64,000 nt of DNA from an uncultured delta proteobacterium (lineage in GTDB: Bacteria > Desulfobacterota > Desulfobaccia > Desulfobaccales > 0-14-0-80-60-11): contig CAWCOX010000004.1 in NCBI GenBank assembly GCA_963797235.1, positions 462,400 to 526,399 on the forward strand, read 5' to 3'. Positions within the stretch are counted from its first letter, which is position 1. Every line of letters begins with the position of its first letter. The notes beneath the pieces were generated by a model. It worked only from the letters and a program-made list of their open reading frames with translations. It did no database searches and was not told the origin of the DNA. This document shows positions 6,418-57,756 of this stretch, piece after piece. The translations under genes were made by a program, and so were the position numbers.

Positions 6418-7954
6418 ATGGAAATCCAAACCCTTTTTTCAAGCGGCAGCAGTCTGACCTGGCAGGATTACTCGGTTCTGTCAGTGATTCTCGCCTTGGT
6501 GGTTTTTGTCGGTTTTTATTCCGGCAGAGAAGAAAAATCCACCAACGACTTTTTCCTGGGGGGGAGAAAAATCCCCTGGTGGGCGGCCGGTCTGGCGTTT
6601 GTCGCCGCGGAAATCAGCGCCCTCACCCTGATTGCGGTGCCCGCCATCGCCTATATGGAAAACTGGGAATATGCCCAGTTTTTTATCGGCGATTTTCTGG
6701 CCCGGATCGCCATCACCTTTCTGTTTATCCCGGCTTTTTACCACTATAACTGCACCTCTATTTATGAATTCTTAAAATATCGCTTCGGACCGGAAACCCA
6801 AATCGCCGGCTCGATCCTGTTTTTCATCACGCGCCTGTTGGCTTCCGGCGTCCGGCTGATGGTAGCTTGTTTGGCGGTGAGCATCTTAGTCGGCTGGCCT
6901 ATCCTGCCGACCATTGTGCTGTTTTCGGTCATCTGCATTCTCTATGTCGCCTGGGGCGGGATCAAGGCGGTGGTCTGGACCAATGTGATTCAAGGCCTGA
7001 CTTACGTAACTGCGGGAATGGTGGCCATCGGTTTCCTGCTGACGCAGCATCGACGGCGGCGCCGCGGGCGTGCTGGCGATTGCCGGCGCGGCCGGCAAAC
7101 TGAAAATCTTCAACTGGGGACCGGGCCTGGCGGCATCGGGATCGGGAGCCTTCCTGAAGAGCCTGTTCACGGATCCCAATCTCCTGGTGCTGGCGACTTT
7201 GAATGGCTTTTTTGGTTCGATGGCGGCCTTTGGGACTGATCAGGAGTCCATGCAGCGACTGCTGACGGTGGAAACGAGACGAGAAAGTCAGAAAACCATG
7301 CTGCTGACCCCCATCGGCAGTTTTCTGATGATGCTCATCTTCCTCTCGGTGGGCGCCTGCCTTTATGCCTTCTATGCCCAGCATCCCGGGATGCCGCTGC
7401 CGGCAAAACTGGACAAAATTTTTCCGCATTTTATCGAGCAGGCGATGCCTCCATACATGCGGGGGCTGATGCTCTCGGCGCTGGTGCTGGCGAGCTTTGA
7501 CACGCCCTTAGGTTCCCTGACCGCTTCCTTTGTCACGGACATCTATCGTCCGGTGCTTCATAAGTCGGGAACCGAACGCCACTATCTTTTAATTTCCCGG
7601 GTCTGTGTGGTGGTTTTTGGCATTATCCTGGCGTTCATCGCCTTCATTTTCAGCCATTTTGAAAAATTCCTCTGGCTCGCTTTCAAGATTGGCGGGGTTA
7701 CCTACGGCTCTTTACTGGGGGTCTTTCTGCTCGGTCTGCTGACCACCAGGCGCTGCAACCGGGTCAATGTCGCGGCCATGGCCCTTTCTGCCTTGAGCAT
7801 GCTAATTCTGTTGATTCTTTCGGAGACGCATGTCTTCCCGCTGGGCTGGACCTGGCTGTTGCTGATCGGCACCTTTTTGACTTTTTCCACCGGTTGGCTT
7901 TTTGGCAAACCAGCCGAGAGCGTCGCGAACTCCCTCCCCAAAACTGAGAGATGA
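6418..7954 (+). CDS. Sodium:solute symporter (SSF) family transporter, frame-disrupted
   Basis: ORFs 6418-7239 and 7070-7954 are the N- and C-halves of one SSF protein (..NDFFLGGRKIPWW.. / ..GTDQESMQRLL..). A +1 shift maps near 7044-7050. Confidence 0.8.
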
Positions 7955-8348
7955 GCCGGAAGCGGTTATCGACTGCTGAACTGGCTTAAAAGAACAGATT
8001 CGTCTGTAACCAACCTCTTTATGTGCCACGACCAAGATTTAAAATGACAACAATCACAGTACCTGACACTTTTGCCAGACAGAATCCGATTCTGTCGTCC
8101 TATCCTACAAAATTGCCCTGACCAGACAACTGGACAGAAAGATGGAGCCTGGCTGGTCCACTGACTGATTGCTCTAAGAAGAGAGGAGATGTTGCGTTCG
8201 GAAAGCCGGAGAGAAAAAAGGATAACCAAATCATGAAACGCAAGTTGTTGGTCTTATCGGTGGAGTGGAGGAAAATTGCAGGTCTGATCTGGATATTGGA
8301 AGCTTTTGGCGCCGTGATAAGTCTCGGATCATAGCAGATATCTTCTAT

Positions 8349-10985
8349 TCATCCCTCCCCGTGTAAAATAAGCCCGGACCAAAAGTAGGGATGGGGCTCT
8401 TTGGCCCGCACTGCCTGCCGGGCGACCTTTAATGCCTCAATCTTGGGTTTCCCCTCCTTCAAGGCTTTATAAAACGCACTATAGAACTTCATGGACTCGT
8501 CTACCGGGATATTCCACAGGGACACCATGACGCTGCGGGCCCCCGCCTGCTGGAAGGCCCGGGCGAAGTTGAGCACCCCCTCCCCCTGCATCACCTGGCC
8601 TACCCCGGTCATGCAGGCGGCGAGGGTCACCAATTCGGCGTCCAACTTGAGCTGTAGCACCTTGCTGAAGGATAGAAAACCATCGTCCGGGGATTTATTC
8701 TCCACCTGGGTCAGTACCAGGGTGGGCTCTTGCACCCCGGCAAGCTTGTCCGCCAAAAACCCGTGAGTGCCGAAGAAGAGATAGCGATACTGCCCTAGGT
8801 TTTCATGGCGCACTCTGGTTTCCGTAGCGTAGACGTCCAGGAGCACCTGTGGCGGTTGGGGCTTTTCCTGGAAGAGGGCCGCCAATTCCAGCACGGTCTG
8901 CCGGGTCTCCGGCAGCGGCGGAAACTCCAGCCGGCCCCACCCCCGGTCGGTGGCCGCCATGGTCATAGCCTTCTCCGGCCCCGCATGCTTGAGTTCCCCC
9001 GCCTTCTCCGTGCCTGCCTTATAGGCCAGATAACGGCTGCTATCCTTGGTGTAGATGCAATCCCCCAGGGCAAAGAGGGCTTGAGCCGCGTGGGACGCTC
9101 CCAGGTGACGGTTCAGGGCCAGGATGGCGGCGGATTGAGAATAGGTTACCGGCCACTGGTCTCCCACCAAAGTGCACTTACCCCAATCCGGCCCCGCCTT
9201 CACCACCAAGGCCTCGAAGGGAAAGGCCCCCAGGGCGCCATCCGGCACGATGATCAGCCGGGTGCCGGGATTCACCCCGGACAGCGCTGGGGCCAGAAGA
9301 TCTTGATATAAGGAGGCCGCGTCGCTCACGCCAAAGCGTGACAAATCCTCCCGCCTCAAGACGCTCTTGCGAAAGGGCGCCAGCATGGCCCCCAGGCGCC
9401 TCTCCAGGGCTTCCTGCCCCAGGGCCAGGCGGAAGATCTGGGTCTTGCCACCGGGCTCCACCCGGAAGATGTAGCTCTCCTTCTCCCCCAGGGCATACTC
9501 TATCAGTACTTCCCCCGGCTTCAGGGGCAGCTCCTGGGCCTTATAGGGCTGGGGATACGCCATGGCGGCGTAACGGGGTTCTCGCCGACGCAGATCTGTC
9601 ACAAACCCTTCTCGTTCTTTTTGCAGGGCTTCAATTTTCCTCAGGAATTCCTGCACGGGCTGCTCTTTTCCTTCCCTCTTCCTCCCACGTTCTTGCATCC
9701 GTGCCAGCCTTTGTTCTTCTAGCTCCTGCAGGTTTTCCCGGAGACTCTTTTCTTTGGCTGCCAAGTCCGGGGGCAACTGCGGGGCTACCCGGGCCGCTCC
9801 GGCGGCCAGGGCCTCCATCAAGGACCGGGCCTTGATGGCCTCGGCAAAATAGAAGGCCGCGGCCGCGGGGTCCTGTCCATAAGTTTGCAAGCCCGGAGGG
9901 GCAGGTTCGCCTTTTAGGGCCATCTCCCCCAAAACCTCCGTCATCTCCCGGTAGGCCCGAAAATAGCCGCCCAGGAGGCCGGACTCGAAGAAACTCGTGC
10001 GTTCCCCCGAAGTTCGAGACCGCAGCCATTCGATATTCTTAATGGCCTCCAGGAAGGCGGCAAACGCCTCGGGCCGGTTTCCTAACCCTTTGAGAGCCAC
10101 CCCCTTTTGCGTGTAATACTGCGCCTGGTATTGGGCCCGGTTCCAAGGCTTGGGAGTAAGTTTAGAAGTCAAGAGGCTCAGTGCTGAATCGTACTTGCCG
10201 GTAGCCAAGTAGAGTTCCACCATCCCCATGTCGCCTTGCTTACCCGGGGCTCGGCGGAAAGTAGATTCCGCCTGGCTGTAATCCTTCTTGGCCAGATAGA
10301 GAAATCCCAGGTTTCTGAGACTCACCGTGGTCCAGAAGTTTTCCGGTCCCAACGTCTTCTCCCTGATCTCGGCGGCCCGCCGGGCCAGGGGCAAGGCCTG
10401 GTCATAGGACCCCATCTGGGTATAAAGGGTCACCAGGTTGTTCAGGGCAGCTGCGGTCTGCGGGCCTTCCGGCCCCGAGACCTTCTCGCTGATCTGCAAA
10501 GCTCGCTGGCTCAGGGCCAGGGCCTTGCCATGCGCCCCCATCTGCCCATAAATAGAGGCCAGGACCATCAGGCTTTGGGCGGTCCGAGGGTGTTCCGGCC
10601 CCAAGGCCTTCTCGCTGCGCTGCAGGGCCTGCTGGGCCAGGGGCAGGGCCTGGTCGAAGGAGCCGAGCTGAGAATATAACCAGGCCAGACGGGCCATGCT
10701 GGCGATGGTGAGGGGATGGTTCGGCCCCAGAGCCGTCTCGCTGAGCTTCAAGGCCTCCTGGAACGGGCGGAGGGCGCGTAAGAACATACTACTGTCCACA
10801 TAATTATTGCCCTCTTTAAGCAGTTCCTTGACCTTGGCCACTTCCGGCTTCTGGCCGGCGACCGGCGTCTCTTCATCCGCGGCGGGCTGAGGAGCTGCCT
10901 GAGAGCCGATTTTCTTGGCATAGCCGGAAGTCCCCGGCAAACCGAGGAACATGAGGCAAACGCAAATGGAGATAAGCCGGCGCAT
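8349..10985 (-). CDS. Secreted TPR-repeat / CHAT-domain (caspase-like) protein
   Basis: 878 aa. N-terminal signal peptide (MRRLISICVCLMFLGLPGTSG). About 5 TPR units (..ALGPNHPLT.. repeated). C-terminal CHAT region with a His/Cys dyad context (..FFGTHGF.., ..LAACMTG..). GGGAGA RBS. Confidence 0.85.
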   Translation of the reverse strand: MRRLISICVCLMFLGLPGTSGYAKKIGSQAAPQPAADEETPVAGQKPEVAKVKELLKEGNNYVDSSMFLRALRPFQEALKLSETALGPNHPLTIASMARLAWLYSQLGSFDQALPLAQQALQRSEKALGPEHPRTAQSLMVLASIYGQMGAHGKALALSQRALQISEKVSGPEGPQTAAALNNLVTLYTQMGSYDQALPLARRAAEIREKTLGPENFWTTVSLRNLGFLYLAKKDYSQAESTFRRAPGKQGDMGMVELYLATGKYDSALSLLTSKLTPKPWNRAQYQAQYYTQKGVALKGLGNRPEAFAAFLEAIKNIEWLRSRTSGERTSFFESGLLGGYFRAYREMTEVLGEMALKGEPAPPGLQTYGQDPAAAAFYFAEAIKARSLMEALAAGAARVAPQLPPDLAAKEKSLRENLQELEEQRLARMQERGRKREGKEQPVQEFLRKIEALQKEREGFVTDLRRREPRYAAMAYPQPYKAQELPLKPGEVLIEYALGEKESYIFRVEPGGKTQIFRLALGQEALERRLGAMLAPFRKSVLRREDLSRFGVSDAASLYQDLLAPALSGVNPGTRLIIVPDGALGAFPFEALVVKAGPDWGKCTLVGDQWPVTYSQSAAILALNRHLGASHAAQALFALGDCIYTKDSSRYLAYKAGTEKAGELKHAGPEKAMTMAATDRGWGRLEFPPLPETRQTVLELAALFQEKPQPPQVLLDVYATETRVRHENLGQYRYLFFGTHGFLADKLAGVQEPTLVLTQVENKSPDDGFLSFSKVLQLKLDAELVTLAACMTGVGQVMQGEGVLNFARAFQQAGARSVMVSLWNIPVDESMKFYSAFYKALKEGKPKIEALKVARQAVRAKEPHPYFWSGLILHGEG

Positions 10986-11020
10986 ATTATTCTCCCATGA
11001 CCCTGCTTAGGGTAAGTTAG

Positions 11021-11749
11021 CTAACGGCTCGTCGCGGCTTGGGAACGGACCCAGGCCTTCAGGTCATTCAGGGCCGCGTCTCCCGGTCGTTTTTGCAGCA
11101 TGGCGTCCACCACTTTGGCCATTTCCGGATACTGTTTATATTCGGCCAGAATGCTGAAAAAATACAATTCCGGGGTGACATCGTCGGCTGCGGTGCCTTT
11201 CTCTAAGTCCCGATAGACCTTCTCGGCTTCCTTGATTTTTCTTTGAGCCTCACTGGAGAGTGGCGCCGCGGTCTTGGCCACCATCTCGCCCCTGGACCCC
11301 ATGGTCTGAATGACTCCTGATTTACTCATACTGGCAGGGCACAAAAGGGGCGCCCCCTCCAACTGCCTGGAGGCTTTGCCGGGGAAGATCTTCACCTCCG
11401 GCTGGGGTGCTGGCTGCTTTCCGGCCACCACCTTGCTCTCTTGGTCGCCGGCCATTAAAGTCACCGGACCTTTCCAGGTTTCTTGCCGACCGCTGGCAAA
11501 ATAGAGGAGTGTCAGGGAAGTAGCCGCCGGAAGCTTGAGGCGGTCACCCTGGCGGACCTTCATAAAGGCCTGCACCTTGGCAGGCTCCTGATTCTCGCCT
11601 TTATTCCTGTATATGGCCGCACCGGTGAGTTTGGTGATCAGCCCCACATCCGGCAAGGATGTTTGGGCCGCCACGGGTGCCGCCAGAAGAGAGGTGAACA
11701 CCGCCAGGCAAAAAAAACCAGTGTACTTCATTCTACGTTTGGCTTTCAT
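11021..11749 (-). CDS. Secreted FecR-like domain protein
   Basis: Start at ATG 11749 with a GGAGGA RBS. Signal peptide (..FFCLAVFTSLLAAPVAAQ). The segment ..GAAIYRNKGENQEPAKVQAFMKVRQGDRLKLPAATSLTLLY.. resembles the FecR beta-sandwich. Lies 14 nt after the cyclase stop and 35 nt before the CHAT start. Confidence 0.5.
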   Translation of the reverse strand: MKAKRRMKYTGFFCLAVFTSLLAAPVAAQTSLPDVGLITKLTGAAIYRNKGENQEPAKVQAFMKVRQGDRLKLPAATSLTLLYFASGRQETWKGPVTLMAGDQESKVVAGKQPAPQPEVKIFPGKASRQLEGAPLLCPASMSKSGVIQTMGSRGEMVAKTAAPLSSEAQRKIKEAEKVYRDLEKGTAADDVTPELYFFSILAEYKQYPEMAKVVDAMLQKRPGDAALNDLKAWVRSQAATSR

Positions 11750-11763
11750 TACCGCTTCCTCCG

Positions 11764-13653
11764 TCAGGAATGCTCCTCGGCTTGCTTTAGACCCTTCACC
11801 TCCAGGACTTCCACCGGTTCCCGGCGGCCCTTGACCCGTACTTGCTTCGCCCCGCCCGTCACCACCCACGGCCCCGCCGCCTTGATCGTATCCGCGCTGG
11901 CCACAATGGTCCAACCTAACTCTTTGGTGAGGCTCTCCAGCCGCGACGCCGTGTTAACCGTATCCCCGATGGCGGTGAATTCGAAACGTTTGGGCGAGCC
12001 GACATTGCCCACTACCACCTCGCCCGTATGGAGTCCGATGCCGATATGGAAATCCTGCCAATCCCGGTCGGGAAAACGCCGGGCTATCCAAGCCTGGAAG
12101 TCCGAGGCCCTTTCGGCCAGAGCCAGGGCCGCGGCAATCGCCCGCCGGGCGTGATCGGGGTGGGGAGCCGGCGAACCAAACACCGCCATAATAGCATCGC
12201 CGATAAACTTGTCCACCGTGCCGCCCTGCTCCAGGATCGGCTCACAGGCCCGGCTGAAGTAATTATTTAGCAGCTCCACCACTTCCTGGGGGGCCAGTGA
12301 TTCCGACATGGGGGTGAAATTTCGGATGTCGGAAAACAGGACCGTCACCGTCACCGCCTCCCCTCCCAGATCGGGCTGCTTGCCGGTAGCCAGAAGCTTC
12401 TCCACCACCTCATCGGAGACGTAGCGCCCAAAGATCTGCCGGAGTCGGGTTCGCTCCCGTTCTTCCCCCGTGAGCCTCAGCCCCAGGACCCCCAGATAGC
12501 TTGCCAGAAGGCCTAGTTGAGGAATGGCCACGGGCATCAGCCAGTCGCGGCGAAACCACAGGTAGGCGAAAACCGCCACCATAACTGCCAGCAGACCCAG
12601 AGCCGCCAATCCCTGTCGAGGAGAAAGTTTGAAGAACACCGCGGTTCCTACGATCAGCACCATTAACAGGTAAATCAGGCGCCTGAGGGCAGAAACCGGC
12701 CGGGGAAACCGTCCCGTCAGGAGGGTCTCCACGATGTTGGCGTGGACTTCCGGGCCGCTCATAAAGCGGGCCGGAAAATTCATAAACCCGCGGCTATACG
12801 GGGTCTGATGAATGTCTTGAACGCCTGTCGGCTCATAGGCAATAATGACGACTTTATCCTTGAGGCCCTGGATTTGGGGATCAGATTCGGCCCCGGGATT
12901 GAGCAAACGCCGGAAAGGGACGCGAGGGACAGTGCCGGGGGGGCCGCTAAACCGGATGAGGGAAAGAGGAGGAAAGAGGCGAGCGCGGTCCCCGGGTGCC
13001 GCCCGCTCCGCCAGGAGAGCGGCAAAAGTGCCCCAGCTCTCGCCTTCATTCGTAGGGATGGCAGGCAGAAATCGACGGATTACCCCATCAGGATCTTGGA
13101 AAAAATTGACTAACCCCACGTCCTCCAGTTTCCCCGGCAATGAACCCCAGTAGTCGGGAAGAGGCAGGAGGATCTTCGCCTTGCCCTGCGTTTCGGCGAT
13201 CTTTTCTGCCGCCAGGATTGTCTTGCCGGCGGCCAGTTGTTCCCTGAAAGCCAGGTCGTAGGTGCGGCTCTGGCCGCTTTCCGTCAATTTCAGCCTTTTC
13301 AGCCACGATTCCGCGCTGACCGAAAAGAGAAAGTCCAGGCCGATGACCTTGGCCCCGGCCTGTCGCAAAACCGCAAGCGCTCGGGCAAAGTGGGGGCTCC
13401 AGAACACCAGGGGCTCGTCCTGGTGCTCCAGCCGCGTCTGGTCATCAATAGCTACGATAACGACATGCTGGGGCTGGTACTGTAGGCCCGCCACCTGGTG
13501 CCAGACATCGTAATACCAATCTTCAGCGGAGTTAAACCACCCCATCCGCTGTGTCACTTCCAAAGCTCCGCCGATAAAGATAATTAGAAGCACAACGCAG
13601 AGGAATTTTCTATGCATTGATACCGTCAATAAGGGTCCTAAATTTGTCCCCAT
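11764..13653 (-). CDS. CHASE2-sensor class III adenylate cyclase
   Basis: 629 aa. N-terminal TM, a periplasmic CHASE2-like region, 3 TM segments, then a cyclase domain (..VTVLFSDIRNFTPMSE.., ..VDKFIGDAIMAVFG.., ..FTAIGDTVNTASRLES..). The Lys/Asp specificity pair suggests ATP as substrate. An alternative start is at 13617. Confidence 0.85.
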   Translation of the reverse strand: MGTNLGPLLTVSMHRKFLCVVLLIIFIGGALEVTQRMGWFNSAEDWYYDVWHQVAGLQYQPQHVVIVAIDDQTRLEHQDEPLVFWSPHFARALAVLRQAGAKVIGLDFLFSVSAESWLKRLKLTESGQSRTYDLAFREQLAAGKTILAAEKIAETQGKAKILLPLPDYWGSLPGKLEDVGLVNFFQDPDGVIRRFLPAIPTNEGESWGTFAALLAERAAPGDRARLFPPLSLIRFSGPPGTVPRVPFRRLLNPGAESDPQIQGLKDKVVIIAYEPTGVQDIHQTPYSRGFMNFPARFMSGPEVHANIVETLLTGRFPRPVSALRRLIYLLMVLIVGTAVFFKLSPRQGLAALGLLAVMVAVFAYLWFRRDWLMPVAIPQLGLLASYLGVLGLRLTGEERERTRLRQIFGRYVSDEVVEKLLATGKQPDLGGEAVTVTVLFSDIRNFTPMSESLAPQEVVELLNNYFSRACEPILEQGGTVDKFIGDAIMAVFGSPAPHPDHARRAIAAALALAERASDFQAWIARRFPDRDWQDFHIGIGLHTGEVVVGNVGSPKRFEFTAIGDTVNTASRLESLTKELGWTIVASADTIKAAGPWVVTGGAKQVRVKGRREPVEVLEVKGLKQAEEHS

Positions 13654-14381
13654 TAGAGCATCATTGGGTCACTTAGTAAAGACTTCTGAACTAAAATTGT
13701 AAATTATGGGGATAGATAGCATGCTCTAATTATCGGGCTGAATCAGGCATGGCAATTAAACATGGCTAACCAATCCCTTGGTCAAAGCAGGCGCAAGAGT
13801 TTCATACCGCGCCCGGAGCTGGCATATCCACGTAGCCTCTGCCTTTCCATTGGCTCACGACTATCGGGCAGTGCTGGCCTGGGGGCCTTAAGCTCTAGTC
13901 TAAAAATGGTTTTGGAGACCCTCATTCCGAGATTTATGCCAAAAGAATCAGTCTATTCTCGACGCGCCCCAATTTTTTAGTTAAGCATGAACTTGATAAA
14001 GTCAAATTTATCTCAGGTTCAAAGCGTAATAAACATCAATGAGCAAGTGCATATTTGTGACCTAAGAACCACTGCTTCCTCTTAGCACCATATCTAGTTG
14101 CATCCACTAAAGAGCTGAGGTCACTTGGATATTGCTCCTCAAGGTATGGCAAAGACTACAAATATCCCAAAGACCGTTGAAAGTTATCTTGCCAAATCTT
14201 ATTCTATAATCGGATCGGCAAAAAATTTAGATATGATTGGATAATGGGAAGTTACTGGACGCCTTATAAGTCCAGGACCATAGTCGATCGCAACACCTAA
14301 AGCTACACCCACGCCTCATCTCAAGCCAATCCACTCATAAAACCAACTTTTTAAATGTCATCCACCTGGTTCCCTCAATCG

Positions 14382-14471: not shown

Positions 14472-14540
14472 GATTAGCCCATGTGAAACTAATAACAATG
14501 ACTTTATATTGTTGGCAGTTGCAAATATTAATGCTTTTCC

Positions 14541-14641
14541 AGAAAAGCCAAACCCGTCGCGAGGCGAGGGCGGAAAGCCACGGGTCTCATGGATGGAGAC
14601 AGCCGGGTCGCCTGGAAGCATAACCCGGGATCCATTTTTTA
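14541..14641 (+). promoter_or_regulatory. c-di-GMP-I (GEMM-I)-like riboswitch with intrinsic terminator
   Basis: RNA reads GCCAAACC-CGUC-GCGA-GGCG-AGGGCGGAAAGCC-ACGGGUCUC..GAGAC-AGCCGGGUCGCC, followed by hairpin CCGGGU..ACCCGG plus U6. It has the same blocks as the copies at 57.4 and 57.6 kb. It also resembles the Vc2 aptamer as I recall it (CAAACC, GNRA hairpin, GGGACGCAAAGCC, AGCGGGGUUACC). Confidence 0.7.
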
Positions 14642-14836
14642 CTTCCGGTCGCATCACGGAGCGACAGAAAAGGCGTCTTCGGCGTCAACCCCGCCGCCTT
14701 AGTTTTAGCAGGCGGAGTCCAGGTAGCATCCGACGTCGAGGCGGCACCCGTACCCATACCGCCCAGCGCCCTCCTCCTGGGTTCGGGCCTGCTGGGCCTG
14801 GTGGGGCTGGGCTGGAGGCGTAAGAAAAGCCAATAA
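14624..14836 (+). pseudogene. PEP-CTERM protein remnant (C-terminal sorting signal only)
   Basis: The open frame has no start codon and ends ..AAPVPIPPSALLLGSGLLGLVGLGWRRKKSQ*. The tail is ~80% identical in nucleotides to that of the gene at 55498-56193. It lies directly after the riboswitch terminator. Confidence 0.7.
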
Positions 14837-14864: not shown

Positions 14865-14893
14865 GGCAGGGCCAGAAATGGCCCTGCCTTTTT
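14865..14893 (+). terminator. Rho-independent terminator
   Basis: GGCAGGGCC-AGAAAT-GGCCCTGCC followed by TTTTT. Confidence 0.75.
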
Positions 14894-15470: not shown

Positions 15471-15887
15471 CTAAAATTCGTAACGCAGGTTGGCGTTGAC
15501 GTATTGGACCATAGAGCCGGCCCGGCCTACCTCGGCGTTGTAATTGACTTGGGCTTAAAGGTTTTCCTTTAGCCTTGCAGTGATGCTTGCTCCCACCAAC
15601 GCGAGGTTCCGTTTGGCTGCGTCAGTCTGAAAAATGGAGGTGCTGCTCCCCTGACTGCGGCTGGCGTTGAGGCCCCGGCCACCGTTGGCAAATTCGTGTT
15701 GATCTAGGGCATTGCCCTGAGGGGCTACCTTCACCGAGGCCATCTTGAGGGGAATGGTAACTCGCCCGCCCTGCCCGGTTTGCAGGGAATGATGAGTAGT
15801 GATCCACTGCTGAGCAAACCAACCGTGGATCTGACGGCATCTACGCAATTTTCTAGAACGAATACTCCAACCCGGCGGTGACTCCAT
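15471..15887 (-). pseudogene. Outer-membrane beta-barrel fragment with an in-frame TAA
   Basis: The ORF ends ..NLALVGASITARLKENL* at 15555-15557. The same frame continues AQVNYNAEVGRAGSMVQYVNANLRYEF*, a typical OMP C-terminal strand ending in Phe. There is no signal peptide, and it overlaps the end of the upstream OMP gene. Confidence 0.45.
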
Positions 15888-17079
15888 GCAAAAGCACGCC
15901 GGAACCGCAATTGACGCCGTGGGCAGTCACCGTAGCCGGCCCGGTTTCATAGGTTTCCTGGATCTGTCCCGGCGCCAGAGCCACGCCGTGGAGCCAGAGC
16001 GCCTGGTAACCGAGCTTGAGTGCAAGCCCCATGGCAAATTGATATTTGCACCGCAAGCCGGCTTCACCGACGAAGGCGGCGTGGTTGGTCTTGGCCCCCG
16101 ATGGGTACACGACCTTTTCGAGGCTGACCCCGGTTGACTCTGAGGCATGGTTCCAATACCCACCGACCTTTATCAATCCGCCAATCGAAAAGCGGCCACG
16201 TTCGAATAATTTCCCAACAGCACCGATCTGGAGGCCATAAAGATTGTTGGTTGTGCTCGTATTCCAGAAAGGCGGAAATGTTCCGGTGACAGGTATGCCC
16301 CGAAGATTTTCAATCCGTGCGACATCGAAAAGATTGAGATTCGGATCGAACTTCCATATAGGCAGAAGGCGATCCGGGGGTGGTATGGTCCCTTGAAGAT
16401 TTTCATTCAGTTGCAGCCAGCGAAATCCGGCCAGCACGGTTATCCAATTCGAGAGATTATACCGCACGTTGAATTCCGCATTGTAAAGTTCCGTGGAGTA
16501 GTCCCAGGTCATTGACTGGTATGAAAAATCCTGAGTTTGAAAAAAGCCGGGGGCCCTCATCACCAGCCAGTTCGGCGGATTATCCGGACCAATGGATCGA
16601 GTGGAGTCCCAGCCGCTGATGCGAAAGAAAGATAATTCTGCACCAAACTTGGAATCGGCATGGTAAGTCACGCCCACTCTGAATCCAGGGGAAAAGCCCT
16701 GATTCAGATCGCTGCTGTTGAGAGCCGGAGTGCCGGGGGTGGTCGGGATCCTGGCGAAAGACACGTCGCCCGGCACTCGCTCAACTAGCGTCCGACTTGC
16801 CGTGCCGACACGGTCGAAGACGATCGTTTCCGCAGAGACGGTCCAGCGCGGCGGGTGAGACGACCGGGAGGAATCGGCATCGTTGGGGCCGGCGTCTTGA
16901 TTGGCGTTGGCTTCCGGGTGACTGAACGCCGTGGTCCCCGTCGCGTCATGTCGGAAATTCCCGCTATCCGGGGTGCCAGCGACAGGGGCATTGAACTGGT
17001 TGACCTCTGCCGCCCCGGCTACGCATGGTGTGGACAGGGCGAAGATCGCCAGCAGTGTTGCCGAAATAAGTTGTTTCAT
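15853..17079 (-). CDS. Outer-membrane beta-barrel (porin-like) protein
   Basis: 408 aa. Signal peptide MKQLISATLLAIFALSTPCVAGAAE. Alternating amphipathic strands. C-terminus ..GVTAGLEYSF. Confidence 0.65.
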   Translation of the reverse strand: MKQLISATLLAIFALSTPCVAGAAEVNQFNAPVAGTPDSGNFRHDATGTTAFSHPEANANQDAGPNDADSSRSSHPPRWTVSAETIVFDRVGTASRTLVERVPGDVSFARIPTTPGTPALNSSDLNQGFSPGFRVGVTYHADSKFGAELSFFRISGWDSTRSIGPDNPPNWLVMRAPGFFQTQDFSYQSMTWDYSTELYNAEFNVRYNLSNWITVLAGFRWLQLNENLQGTIPPPDRLLPIWKFDPNLNLFDVARIENLRGIPVTGTFPPFWNTSTTNNLYGLQIGAVGKLFERGRFSIGGLIKVGGYWNHASESTGVSLEKVVYPSGAKTNHAAFVGEAGLRCKYQFAMGLALKLGYQALWLHGVALAPGQIQETYETGPATVTAHGVNCGSGVLLHGVTAGLEYSF

Positions 17080-24783: not shown

Positions 24784-24947
24784 TTTAATCCTCCTGCTGC
24801 CGGGATGGAGGGCAATAAAAAAGCCCCTGCTTCACCAAAGGTGAACACAGGAGCCATCAGCGTCGGCGCGGTTCGGGTGGATTTATCCTCCCAGGCGGAC
24901 CCCATCGCCTCGCCCCCCAAATTAAGGCCGCGGCTCAGCGAATGCAA
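24784..24947 (-). promoter_or_regulatory. Structured 5' leader with intrinsic terminator upstream of the antiporter (candidate riboswitch or attenuator)
   Basis: Possible promoter TTGCAT-17-TAATTT (24947-24919). The leader contains hairpins GGCG..CGCC and GGGAGGAU-AAA-UCCACCC. A 14-bp terminator stem (24823-24856) plus U6 (24817-24822) sits ~35 nt before the RBS and GTG. Confidence 0.45.
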
Positions 24948-57376: not shown

Positions 57377-57470
57377 TAAAAAAGCCGCGTTACCCGTTTC
57401 AGGTAACCCGGCTGTCTCTTCCTAAGACCCGTGGCTTTCCGTCCCCGCCTCACGACGGGTTTGGCTTGCA
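57377..57470 (-). promoter_or_regulatory. c-di-GMP-I (GEMM-I)-like riboswitch A with terminator
   Basis: RNA: GCCAAACC-CGUC-GUGA-GGCG-GGGACGGAAAGCC-ACGGGUCU-UAGGAAG-AGAC-AGCCGGGUUACC-UGAAAC-GGGUAACGCGGC-U6. The terminator stem uses the aptamer 3' strand. Confidence 0.75.
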
Positions 57471-57590
57471 TGTAAACTAATTATGTAATATTTCTTGTCA
57501 AGTCACTTTCAGCTAAGTCAAGTCACTTTTAACTAATTTTTCCTGGCTTTTCGCTGGAGGCCTCCCCTGCATGACTGGATTGGCCCAAAT

Positions 57591-57682
57591 AAAAAAGCCG
57601 CGGTCGCCCTCTTCAGGCAACCCGGCTATCTCTTCCTAAGACCCGTGGCTTTCCGTCCCCGCCTCACGACGGGTTTGGCTTG
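57591..57682 (-). promoter_or_regulatory. c-di-GMP-I (GEMM-I)-like riboswitch B with its own terminator (tandem with A)
   Basis: The aptamer is identical to A except for one position. Its terminator is GCCGGGUUGCCUGAAGAGGGCGACCGCGGC-U6. A degenerate third copy lies at ~57697-57748. Confidence 0.75.
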
Positions 57683-57756
57683 TCTTCGTTAGTGGCGATC
57701 TCTTCCTTAGAGCCTTGCTCTGCCCTCATCGCCTCACGTCGGCATCATTTGTGTGT

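Follow-up and report, generated by a model that had tools for sequence, protein, structure and literature searches.

What might link an inner-membrane receptor that is predicted to make cyclic AMP (cAMP) to an apparently exported protease encoded beside it? The question is raised by three adjoining genes on the minus strand, at positions 8,349 to 13,653, of a 64,000-nucleotide (nt) stretch of DNA from an uncultured delta proteobacterium (GenBank assembly GCA_963797235.1, contig CAWCOX010000004.1, positions 462,400 to 526,399 of the forward strand), the whole of which is called the window below. The genes encode an adenylate cyclase with a CHASE2 sensor domain, a middle protein of 242 amino acids (aa), named MID here, and a TPR-CHAT protein of the caspase fold. 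To our knowledge, neither a ligand nor a mechanism has been defined for CHASE2 in two decades, widespread as this sensor domain is. We found that the three genes form a module conserved in two phyla, and hence probably one envelope-sensing device controlling cAMP. That the three proteins work together is, in our judgement, very likely.

The initial annotation of this DNA, made from the sequence alone, had described three minus-strand genes separated by 14 and 35 nt. Open reading frames (ORFs) are found at exactly these places, as follows.

11764-13653 (-), CHASE2-class III adenylate cyclase, 629 aa, first gene of the module (ORF list and Pfam)
11750-11763 (-), 14-nt intergenic spacer between cyclase and MID, with the Shine-Dalgarno sequence GGAGGA at 11757-11762
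11021-11749 (-), MID, predicted secreted protein of 242 aa from an unnamed family, starting MKAKRR
10986-11020 (-), 35-nt intergenic spacer between MID and TPR-CHAT, with the Shine-Dalgarno sequence GGGAG at 10992-10996
8349-10985 (-), TPR-CHAT caspase-fold protease, predicted secreted, 878 aa (ORF list and Pfam)

The longest ORF for MID covers 11021-11914, and the start at 11749 is the conserved one. Read from the sequence, the Shine-Dalgarno sites of MID and TPR-CHAT both lie 7-8 nt ahead of the ATG, and no convincing internal terminator was found between the three genes. With a common strand, short gaps, ribosome-binding sites and an adjacency that is kept across loci, the genes have the layout of a predicted operon.

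A pattern scan for MID over one genome per GTDB species, in which ORFs were called around each hit and searched with the domains of the window proteins, produced 73 loci in Thermodesulfobacteriota (Desulfobaccales, Syntrophales, Desulfobacterales) and Betaproteobacteria (Burkholderiales, Propionivibrio). A CHASE2 cyclase lies directly upstream of MID on the same strand at 68 of the 73, and a CHAT-domain gene is present in the cluster at 52. Among the 40 well-flanked loci, defined by at least 6 kilobases (kb) upstream and 3.5 kb downstream, these numbers are 39 and 35. In Thermodesulfobacteriota the cyclase gene comes first, followed by MID and then CHAT, whereas betaproteobacterial loci begin with CHAT, continue with the cyclase and end with MID, which is frequently present as two paralogues. 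That the genes are rearranged yet kept together argues for functional coupling. Chance adjacency was rejected on the conservation survey. The co-occurrence, whose absence outside this genome would have counted against the initial proposal, extends over 73 species-level loci in two phyla, and the view that the genes are functionally wired to one another is upheld by this co-occurrence, by the rearranged order and by natural fusions of two of them. Outside the three genes, the first 26 kb of the window share no synteny with related loci, even at 80% MID identity, and the recurrent families in a Pfam scan of 105 flanking ORFs (Usp, EarP, AMP-binding) represent lineage synteny only. Since nothing else is syntenic or recurrent in the flanks, we take the unit to be a three-gene module.

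The first member of this module has the following two domains.

12646-13560 (-), periplasmic CHASE2 domain, residues 32-336 (Pfam coordinates and hydropathy)
11824-12351 (-), cytoplasmic class III catalytic domain, residues 435-610 (Pfam and residue conservation)

The CHASE2 match is strong (Pfam, 4e-36; 125 bits against a gathering cut-off of 26.3), and a Kyte-Doolittle scan, which is a hydropathy heuristic, places hydrophobic segments on both sides of the domain (residues 7-38, 319-369 and 372-390). The two agree with the extracytoplasmic CHASE2 module flanked by transmembrane segments that had been described. No matching solved structure was found for the CHASE2 region among PDB relatives. 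The catalytic domain (Pfam Guanylate_cyc, 3e-25) has adenylate cyclases as its closest PDB relatives. Its metal-binding aspartates (D442, D486) and the substrate pair K482/D564, both already reported in the initial annotation, are each retained in 67/67 cyclase orthologues, and the transition-state residues N567 and R571 are each retained in 66/67. In class III cyclases, a Lys/Asp pair specifies ATP as the substrate. The domain is therefore predicted to be catalytically competent and ATP-specific, with ordinary cAMP as its product.

The last gene of the module encodes a signal peptide followed by two recognizable domains.

10917-10985 (-), signal peptide, residues 1-23, ending ..LPGTSGYA/KK (n/h/c layout kept in orthologues, heuristic)
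10026-10838 (-), kinesin-light-chain-type TPR array, residues ~50-320 (Pfam TPR_12 and TPR_10)
8358-9320 (-), CHAT domain, residues 556-876 (Pfam)

The CHAT domain scores 6e-52 in Pfam (177 bits against a gathering cut-off of 24). The TPR array matches TPR_12 at 6e-50 (168 bits) as well as TPR_10, and its closest sequence relatives in the PDB are kinesin light chain TPR domains (E 2e-33). The catalytic residues had been noticed in the expected contexts, FFGTHGF and LAACMTG, which correspond to His741 (codon 8763-8765) and Cys791 (codon 8613-8615). This dyad, whose loss in orthologues would have spoken against the proposal, is retained in 44/44 cluster-linked CHAT proteins, all of at least 700 aa, and such invariance argues that CHAT catalysis is under selection. 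Cleavable signal peptides had been assigned to both the middle and the TPR-CHAT protein; their n/h/c layouts are kept in orthologues, which is again a heuristic sign, and a related CHAT protein bearing PG_binding_1 counts toward export. The TPR-CHAT protein is thus predicted to be an active, exported caspase-fold cysteine protease. At three loci from metagenome-assembled genomes, the TPR-CHAT gene is broken into several ORFs (L005, 10743-13420; L013, 11199-13379; L029, 10585-12220), which are either frameshift assembly errors or pseudogenes. A more distant TPR-CHAT protein (P0228) stands alone.

MID, which sits between these two enzymes in the window, contains four elements.

11666-11749 (-), signal peptide, residues 1-28, ending ..LLAAPVAA/QTS (n/h/c layout, heuristic)
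11387-11650 (-), beta domain, residues 34-121 (AlphaFold2 models and conservation over 220 sequences)
11297-11323 (-), linker motif K143-S-G-V-I-Q-T-M150-G (conservation over 220 sequences)
11027-11254 (-), C-terminal four-helix TPR-like domain, residues 166-241 (model and Foldseek)

MID has no Pfam match at E<=10 beyond a sub-threshold TPR_14 and no NCBIfam match, and its 286 homologues in the database are all unannotated and devoid of any Pfam domain. A profile search of 1.84 billion representatives retrieved 642 clusters (50% identity) at E<=1e-3 and 151 at E<=1e-30; this is a large and so far unnamed family. No relative was found among 72,556 plasmids. The AlphaFold2 model of the whole protein (predicted local distance difference test, pLDDT, 80; predicted template modelling score, pTM, 0.72; pLDDT 85 for the beta domain alone) runs from the signal peptide through the beta domain and a disordered linker (138-157) to the four-helix domain. 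The modelled signal peptide is helical at residues 14-21, and its pLDDT is low at 1-9 and 24-28; in the family alignment, the N-terminus is variable and hydrophobic and closes in a conserved A-Q. The beta-domain motifs AFMKVRxGD and GRQETWxGP are among the best-conserved features of the 220 sequences. A single PDB fold match was obtained for this domain, 5ix9 (Foldseek: E 0.011, probability 1.0, root-mean-square deviation 1.6 A over 69 columns, 17% identity), which is the N-terminal domain of the Marinomonas ice-binding adhesin MpIBP and served as the template for the LapA retention module. The C-terminus resembles Fis1/TPR folds in Foldseek comparisons with the PDB, and TPR_14 is matched in the C-terminal part of 38 of 119 diverse family members scanned at E<=1. 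When the MID alignment was used as a profile against the PDB, all matches were at chance level (integrase SH3, ryanodine receptor). In the scan of 119 members, five match the Pfam family DUF7354 (best 6.7e-6) and six weakly match EAD1 (effector-associated domain 1).

The initial annotation had called this protein FecR-like, a label that had to be given up. No FecR match appears in Pfam (E<=10) or NCBIfam; of the 56 Pfam families matched by the 119 members at E<=1, FecR is absent from the 25 most often matched; and no FecR or PupR entry occurs among the Foldseek matches of the MID models in the PDB. Genuine FecR proteins do accompany CHASE2 receptors elsewhere: the gene beside CHASE2 cyclases in Methylocystis, Ensifer and pSymB (L078 and L079 included) encodes a 1220-aa protein with FecR, TPR and a putative C-terminal barrel, and a 223-aa FecR protein is paired with a CHASE2 cyclase on a Rhodobacteraceae plasmid (L083). 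For scale, genuine FecR partners of CHASE2 receptors score 7.6e-14 and 2.1e-11 on Pfam FecR. Aligned by hhalign to five genuine FecR domains, the MID family profile reached probabilities of 0.9% and 0.6%, the small FecR alignment limiting the sensitivity of this comparison, and 0.8% against the NsrA-like L078 protein. The alignment sets MID 30-83 on the start of the FecR domain, where a similar hydrophobic/GD pattern occurs, and this pattern is probably what led to the label. FecR homology is thus largely refuted. As MID lies directly beside the cyclase at most loci, it stands where a FecR-domain partner would, and as judged by these searches it is a positional analogue of the FecR-domain partners of other CHASE2 receptors, not a detectable homologue.

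Unexpectedly, a motif in the linker of MID is also among the best-conserved features of the 220 sequences. It follows the family consensus [KR][SA]G[GV][VI]x[VT][RM][GA] and sits in a disordered stretch, with pLDDT <50 at residues 138-157. G145 is kept in 93% of MID sequences, position 150 is occupied by R in 155 of the 220 sequences and by M in 40, and the whole motif is doubled in some members with long linkers. In the survey it was found in 74/87 MID ORFs, in 0/70 cyclases and 0/52 CHAT proteins, and in 3/1078 other ORFs. For proteases of clan CD, Arg is a common residue ahead of the cut; for craspases it is Met or Leu. Because the motif is specific to MID and lies in a disordered linker, and because TPR arrays of the kinesin-light-chain type, such as the one here, bind peptides, it is a candidate target of the protease, plausibly as a cleavage, pseudosubstrate or docking site. 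In many betaproteobacterial loci, tandem MID paralogues, both with the linker motif, follow the cyclase (for example L041, 9165-9827 and 9953-10615); further tandem paralogues occur in L033, L036-L038, L042, L043, L050, L051 and L055.

A second line of evidence comes from natural fusions. Five protein clusters of ~1100 aa (P0127, P0129, P0147, P0148, P0153), the first of them found on 16 contigs, consist of MID joined to TPR-CHAT. In the two whose sequences were read (P0127, P0147), the signal peptide of MID takes the place of the CHAT protein's own, and since one signal peptide serves the fusion, this supports a location of MID and protease together outside the cytoplasm. One such fusion gene directly follows the cyclase (L025). 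The P0127 contigs, such as L001-L004, end ~318 nt upstream of the fusion gene, leaving the cyclase position out of view, and the break coincides with a transposase C-terminal fragment. MID is also fused, independently, to a Peptidase_C14 caspase (P0260, P0266), while other MID fusions carry DUF4384. The MID-Peptidase_C14 genes directly follow a CHASE2 cyclase and precede, with or without a DUF4384 protein in between, a 1350-aa MORN/TPR/PG_binding_1-CHAT protein (L085, 2363-11284; L087, 5094-14145), so that these clusters hold two caspase-fold proteases each; the peptidoglycan-binding domain occurs in one of the 1350-aa CHAT proteins. Again and again, therefore, MID is found together with a caspase-fold protease of one or the other family and with a CHASE2 cyclase, and its two independent fusions to such proteases indicate a protease-specific relationship. 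Two variant loci lack part of the set. In L081 (3498-14461), a weak DUF928 protein, a CHASE2 protein without cyclase domain and with a weak HEPN_Swt1-like tail, and two TPR-CHAT genes occur without MID, near cas1/cas2 and a WD40 gene; this locus suggests that the CHASE2-CHAT linkage is wider than the cyclase module. In L018, a MID gene with neither cyclase nor CHAT is divergent to a Peptidase_C10 gene for a streptopain-like cysteine protease with an Inhibitor_I69 prodomain, the pair lying at 7324-8919 (-) and 9803-10672 (+).

How might such a module operate? We read it as a sensor of the envelope in which MID would connect CHASE2 with the protease and gate cAMP synthesis, a reading whose probability we place a shade below even. 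The cyclase would be the inner-membrane receptor, its periplasmic CHASE2 domain controlling the cytoplasmic class III domain. MID would act as a soluble periplasmic adaptor, docked on CHASE2 and serving as the dedicated partner of the protease, whose TPR array or active site would engage the linker motif, with M150 (Arg in most relatives) as the candidate P1 residue. An envelope or extracellular cue would activate the protease, MID would be cleaved or released, and the resulting change in the state of CHASE2 would switch cAMP production. We infer the binding of MID to CHASE2, the cleavage of the linker and the direction of signalling. The parts of this scheme differ in strength: that MID is an adaptor contacting both partners is rather probable, whereas proteolytic gating through the linker motif is put forward tentatively, as rather less likely than not; that the caspase-fold protease cuts, or is held by, the adaptor at this motif and so turns the CHASE2 cyclase on or off is possible, on balance unlikely.

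Several observations weigh against the scheme. The localisation of MID and TPR-CHAT rests on sequence heuristics. Five of the 40 well-flanked loci have no CHAT gene, which implies that the protease is not obligatory, and no recurrent cNMP-binding, CRP or phosphodiesterase gene was found in the 105 flanking ORFs. Loci that have no CHAT neighbour still keep the linker motif (Propionivibrio L073-L076; L021, L023), so it may serve CHASE2 binding rather than proteolysis. Finally, covariation between MID position 150 and CHAT, as measured by mutual information, is confounded, 201 columns correlating perfectly through the two-clade phylogeny.

Among the alternatives, the one that survives best dispenses with proteolysis of MID. 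MID and TPR-CHAT would be ligand-binding accessories of CHASE2, as NsrA is for CyaK, the TPR array capturing a peptide or protein cue and the CHAT dyad serving maturation, turnover or ligand processing. In Sinorhizobium meliloti, CyaD1, CyaD2 and CyaK answer a plant protein signal via the outer-membrane protein NsrA (PMC13001267), and CyaD1 becomes constitutive once its CHASE2 domain is deleted (PMC5498481); CHASE2 is thus inhibitory, and the signal of protein nature, in that system. It shares with ours the combination of CHASE2 with a class III cyclase and an adjoining secreted partner made of an N-terminal beta domain and TPR. NsrA, however, is a 1220-aa protein with FecR, TPR and an outer-membrane barrel and comes without a protease, whereas MID is a soluble, non-FecR protein of 242 aa that has no barrel and is accompanied by a separate protease. 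Other CHASE2 receptors likewise have non-enzymatic partners with a beta domain and TPR (the NsrA-like L078 and L079; Campylobacterota), and the pair of cyclase and MID (68/73) is more conserved than the triad, both in favour of the accessory model, as is the protein signal of the rhizobial cyclases. Yet the invariant dyad (44/44) argues for selected catalysis, and the two independent fusions of MID to two caspase-fold families for a tie specific to the protease. On this evidence we regard a purely accessory role as unlikely, though worth weighing.

CHASE2 receptors with envelope accessories are known from other lineages as well. The Burkholderia 'BiofilmReg' operon pairs a LysM-FecR protein with a CHASE2 kinase (PMC5192318), and in Campylobacterota the genes for a CHASE2 cyclase, a FecR-domain protein, a TPR protein and a phosphodiesterase are clustered (PMC9239204). 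In both, the CHASE2 receptor is encoded with a secreted accessory as in the window, and in Campylobacterota with a TPR protein too; but their accessories carry genuine FecR (and LysM), the Burkholderia output is a histidine kinase, and no CHAT or caspase is reported. CHASE2-caspase fusions in which the caspase is cytoplasmic have been noted in cyanobacteria and conflict systems.

Nucleotide cyclases and caspase-fold proteases are both typical components of conflict systems. In the next alternative, the module would watch the envelope for phage or competitors, with the caspase-like protein as trigger or effector and cAMP as the alarm. In the Myxococcus anti-sigma factor DdvA, which controls an island of CRISPR and CBASS (cyclic-oligonucleotide-based anti-phage signalling system) genes, a periplasmic TPR-CHAT domain has been solved by cryo-electron microscopy, and signal-induced cleavage, by auto-proteolysis, of a flexible linker has been proposed (PMC11506125). 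The initial annotation held that bacterial CHAT proteases are best known from cytoplasmic defence; the periplasmic TPR-CHAT of DdvA provides a precedent for the setting here (PMC11506125). In DdvA, as in our proposal for the module, a transmembrane signalling device senses through a periplasmic TPR-CHAT that carries a His-Cys dyad, and a flexible linker is the suggested site of cleavage. DdvA differs in being a single membrane-anchored polypeptide that controls an extracytoplasmic function (ECF) sigma factor and a defence island, whereas here TPR-CHAT is free, the output is predicted to be cAMP and the adaptor is separate. Only a signal peptide stands ahead of the TPR array in the window protein, with no DdvA-type zinc anti-sigma domain and transmembrane helix; no sigma factor gene was found adjacent to the module, and a PDB sequence search with TPR-CHAT gave no match to DdvA.

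Further points bear on a role in defence. The module appears mobile, given the absence of synteny at 80% protein identity, a possible transposase remnant beside it and a patchy distribution over two phyla; the L081 variant lies near cas1/cas2, and the cyclase domain matches PycC models. Against this, the PADLOC matches amount to generic cyclase-domain homology: MID has none, CHAT has merely a weak TPR match, and neither hits a defence model. No known anti-phage system in PADLOC has models for all components of the module. The Lys/Asp pair moreover predicts ordinary cAMP, the cluster contains no cNMP-activated effector, and its neighbours are metabolic or housekeeping genes and not defence islands, so a defence function seems quite improbable. 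Partner-controlled proteases of similar build do exist in the cytoplasm. In Craspase (type III-E Csx29, a TPR-CHAT protein, with its substrate Csx30) and in separase-securin, the protease is under allosteric control by a partner and acts on, or is blocked by, a dedicated protein encoded as its neighbour. Their TPR-CHAT architecture is shared with the protease of our module, but they are cytoplasmic and controlled by RNA or the cell cycle, the module has no gRAMP or CRISPR components, and no sequence similarity of TPR-CHAT to either is detectable outside the Pfam CHAT model.

A slightly weaker alternative makes the protease an output device as in the Lap system: it would trim envelope or surface proteins, MID would be a decoy or tether resembling a retention module, and the cyclase would report or feed back. 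LapD-LapG-LapA also ties a periplasmic cysteine protease to a cyclic-nucleotide signalling protein of the inner membrane, and its substrate LapA has the cleavage motif in a flexible linker that comes after a small retention domain of beta structure. The beta domain of MID matches that fold (5ix9) and solely the MpIBP/LapA retention domain, and it precedes a flexible linker as in LapG substrates. The fold match is nevertheless modest (E 0.011, 17% identity). LapG is transglutaminase-like and not of the caspase fold, LapD receives cyclic di-GMP (c-di-GMP) in inside-out signalling whereas the cyclase domain here is an output and not a nucleotide receiver, and no LapD, LapG, type I secretion system or RTX adhesin genes accompany the module. 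None of the Lap families in Pfam matched the three window proteins, nor were LapD, LapG (PF06035) or RTX among the recurrent matches of the flank survey. We consider a Lap-like device very unlikely. Least probable is that MID is a FecR homologue acting like FecR-type anti-sigma transducers under regulated proteolysis, since the FecR proteins adjoining CHASE2 receptors in other genomes and the faint alignment at MID 30-83 are outweighed by the 0.9% alignment probability, by the missing Pfam, NCBIfam and fold matches, by the position of FecR outside the listed family counts for the 119 relatives and by the lack of any transmembrane or anti-sigma domain in MID.

Apart from the FecR label, the initial observation holds, and its interpretation points the right way, with strong comparative evidence behind it. 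The arrangement varies two known themes, CHASE2 receptors with envelope accessories and periplasmic TPR-CHAT sensors, for which NsrA-CyaK and DdvA are the nearest precedents. As far as checked by full-text search, no paper joins CHASE2 or FecR with 'CHAT domain' or describes a CHASE2 cyclase-CHAT module or the MID family, in keeping with the initial description of the arrangement as uncharacterised. The rhizobial NsrA-Cya system is the sole worked example for CHASE2 and implicates a protein both as partner and as signal; the module offers a compact three-gene version, with a dyad to mutate, a nine-residue candidate motif and fusions that hint at contacts. It would extend caspase-fold proteases (CHAT, C14) from cytoplasmic defence and cell death to extracytoplasmic signalling into a second messenger. 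The MID family, with its 642 clusters, can be annotated as a putative periplasmic adaptor associated with CHASE2 cyclases and caspases. If correct, a protease-gated receptor would be the first activation mechanism defined for CHASE2 and the first direct link from a caspase to cAMP in bacteria.

The surroundings of the module contain several minor features. Just upstream of the cyclase, a short frame at 13778-13891 (+), ..ARVSYRARSWHIHVASAFPLAH.., resembles a frame upstream of the fusion gene in L001 (134-298), which matches the C-terminal end of an IS1380-type DDE transposase (DDE_Tnp_1_4, E 0.0075). The two frames have no similarity at the DNA level, and blastn revealed no repeat or leader element shared upstream of the cyclase; the frame is possibly a transposase remnant beside a mobile module. 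Farther upstream on the same strand as the module lies a gene for a BBP7-family beta-barrel porin, 15853-17079 (-), which was weighed as a possible outer-membrane partner of the NsrA kind and dropped, since none of the related loci shows it in synteny. Between the two, in a 2.2-kb gene-poor gap upstream of the cyclase and on the opposite strand, is a c-di-GMP-I riboswitch, 14537-14615 (+), scoring 53 bits (gathering score 35) and followed by terminator-like hairpins at 14680-14696 and 14865-14888. Only ORFs of <=60 aa were found downstream of it before the porin gene on the other strand, and the riboswitch may be an orphan or control a small ORF. Elsewhere in the window are a fluoride riboswitch, 24841-24918 (-), at 41.5 bits, and two tandem c-di-GMP-I-GGC riboswitch aptamers, 57398-57474 and 57612-57688 (-), at 62 and 68 bits.

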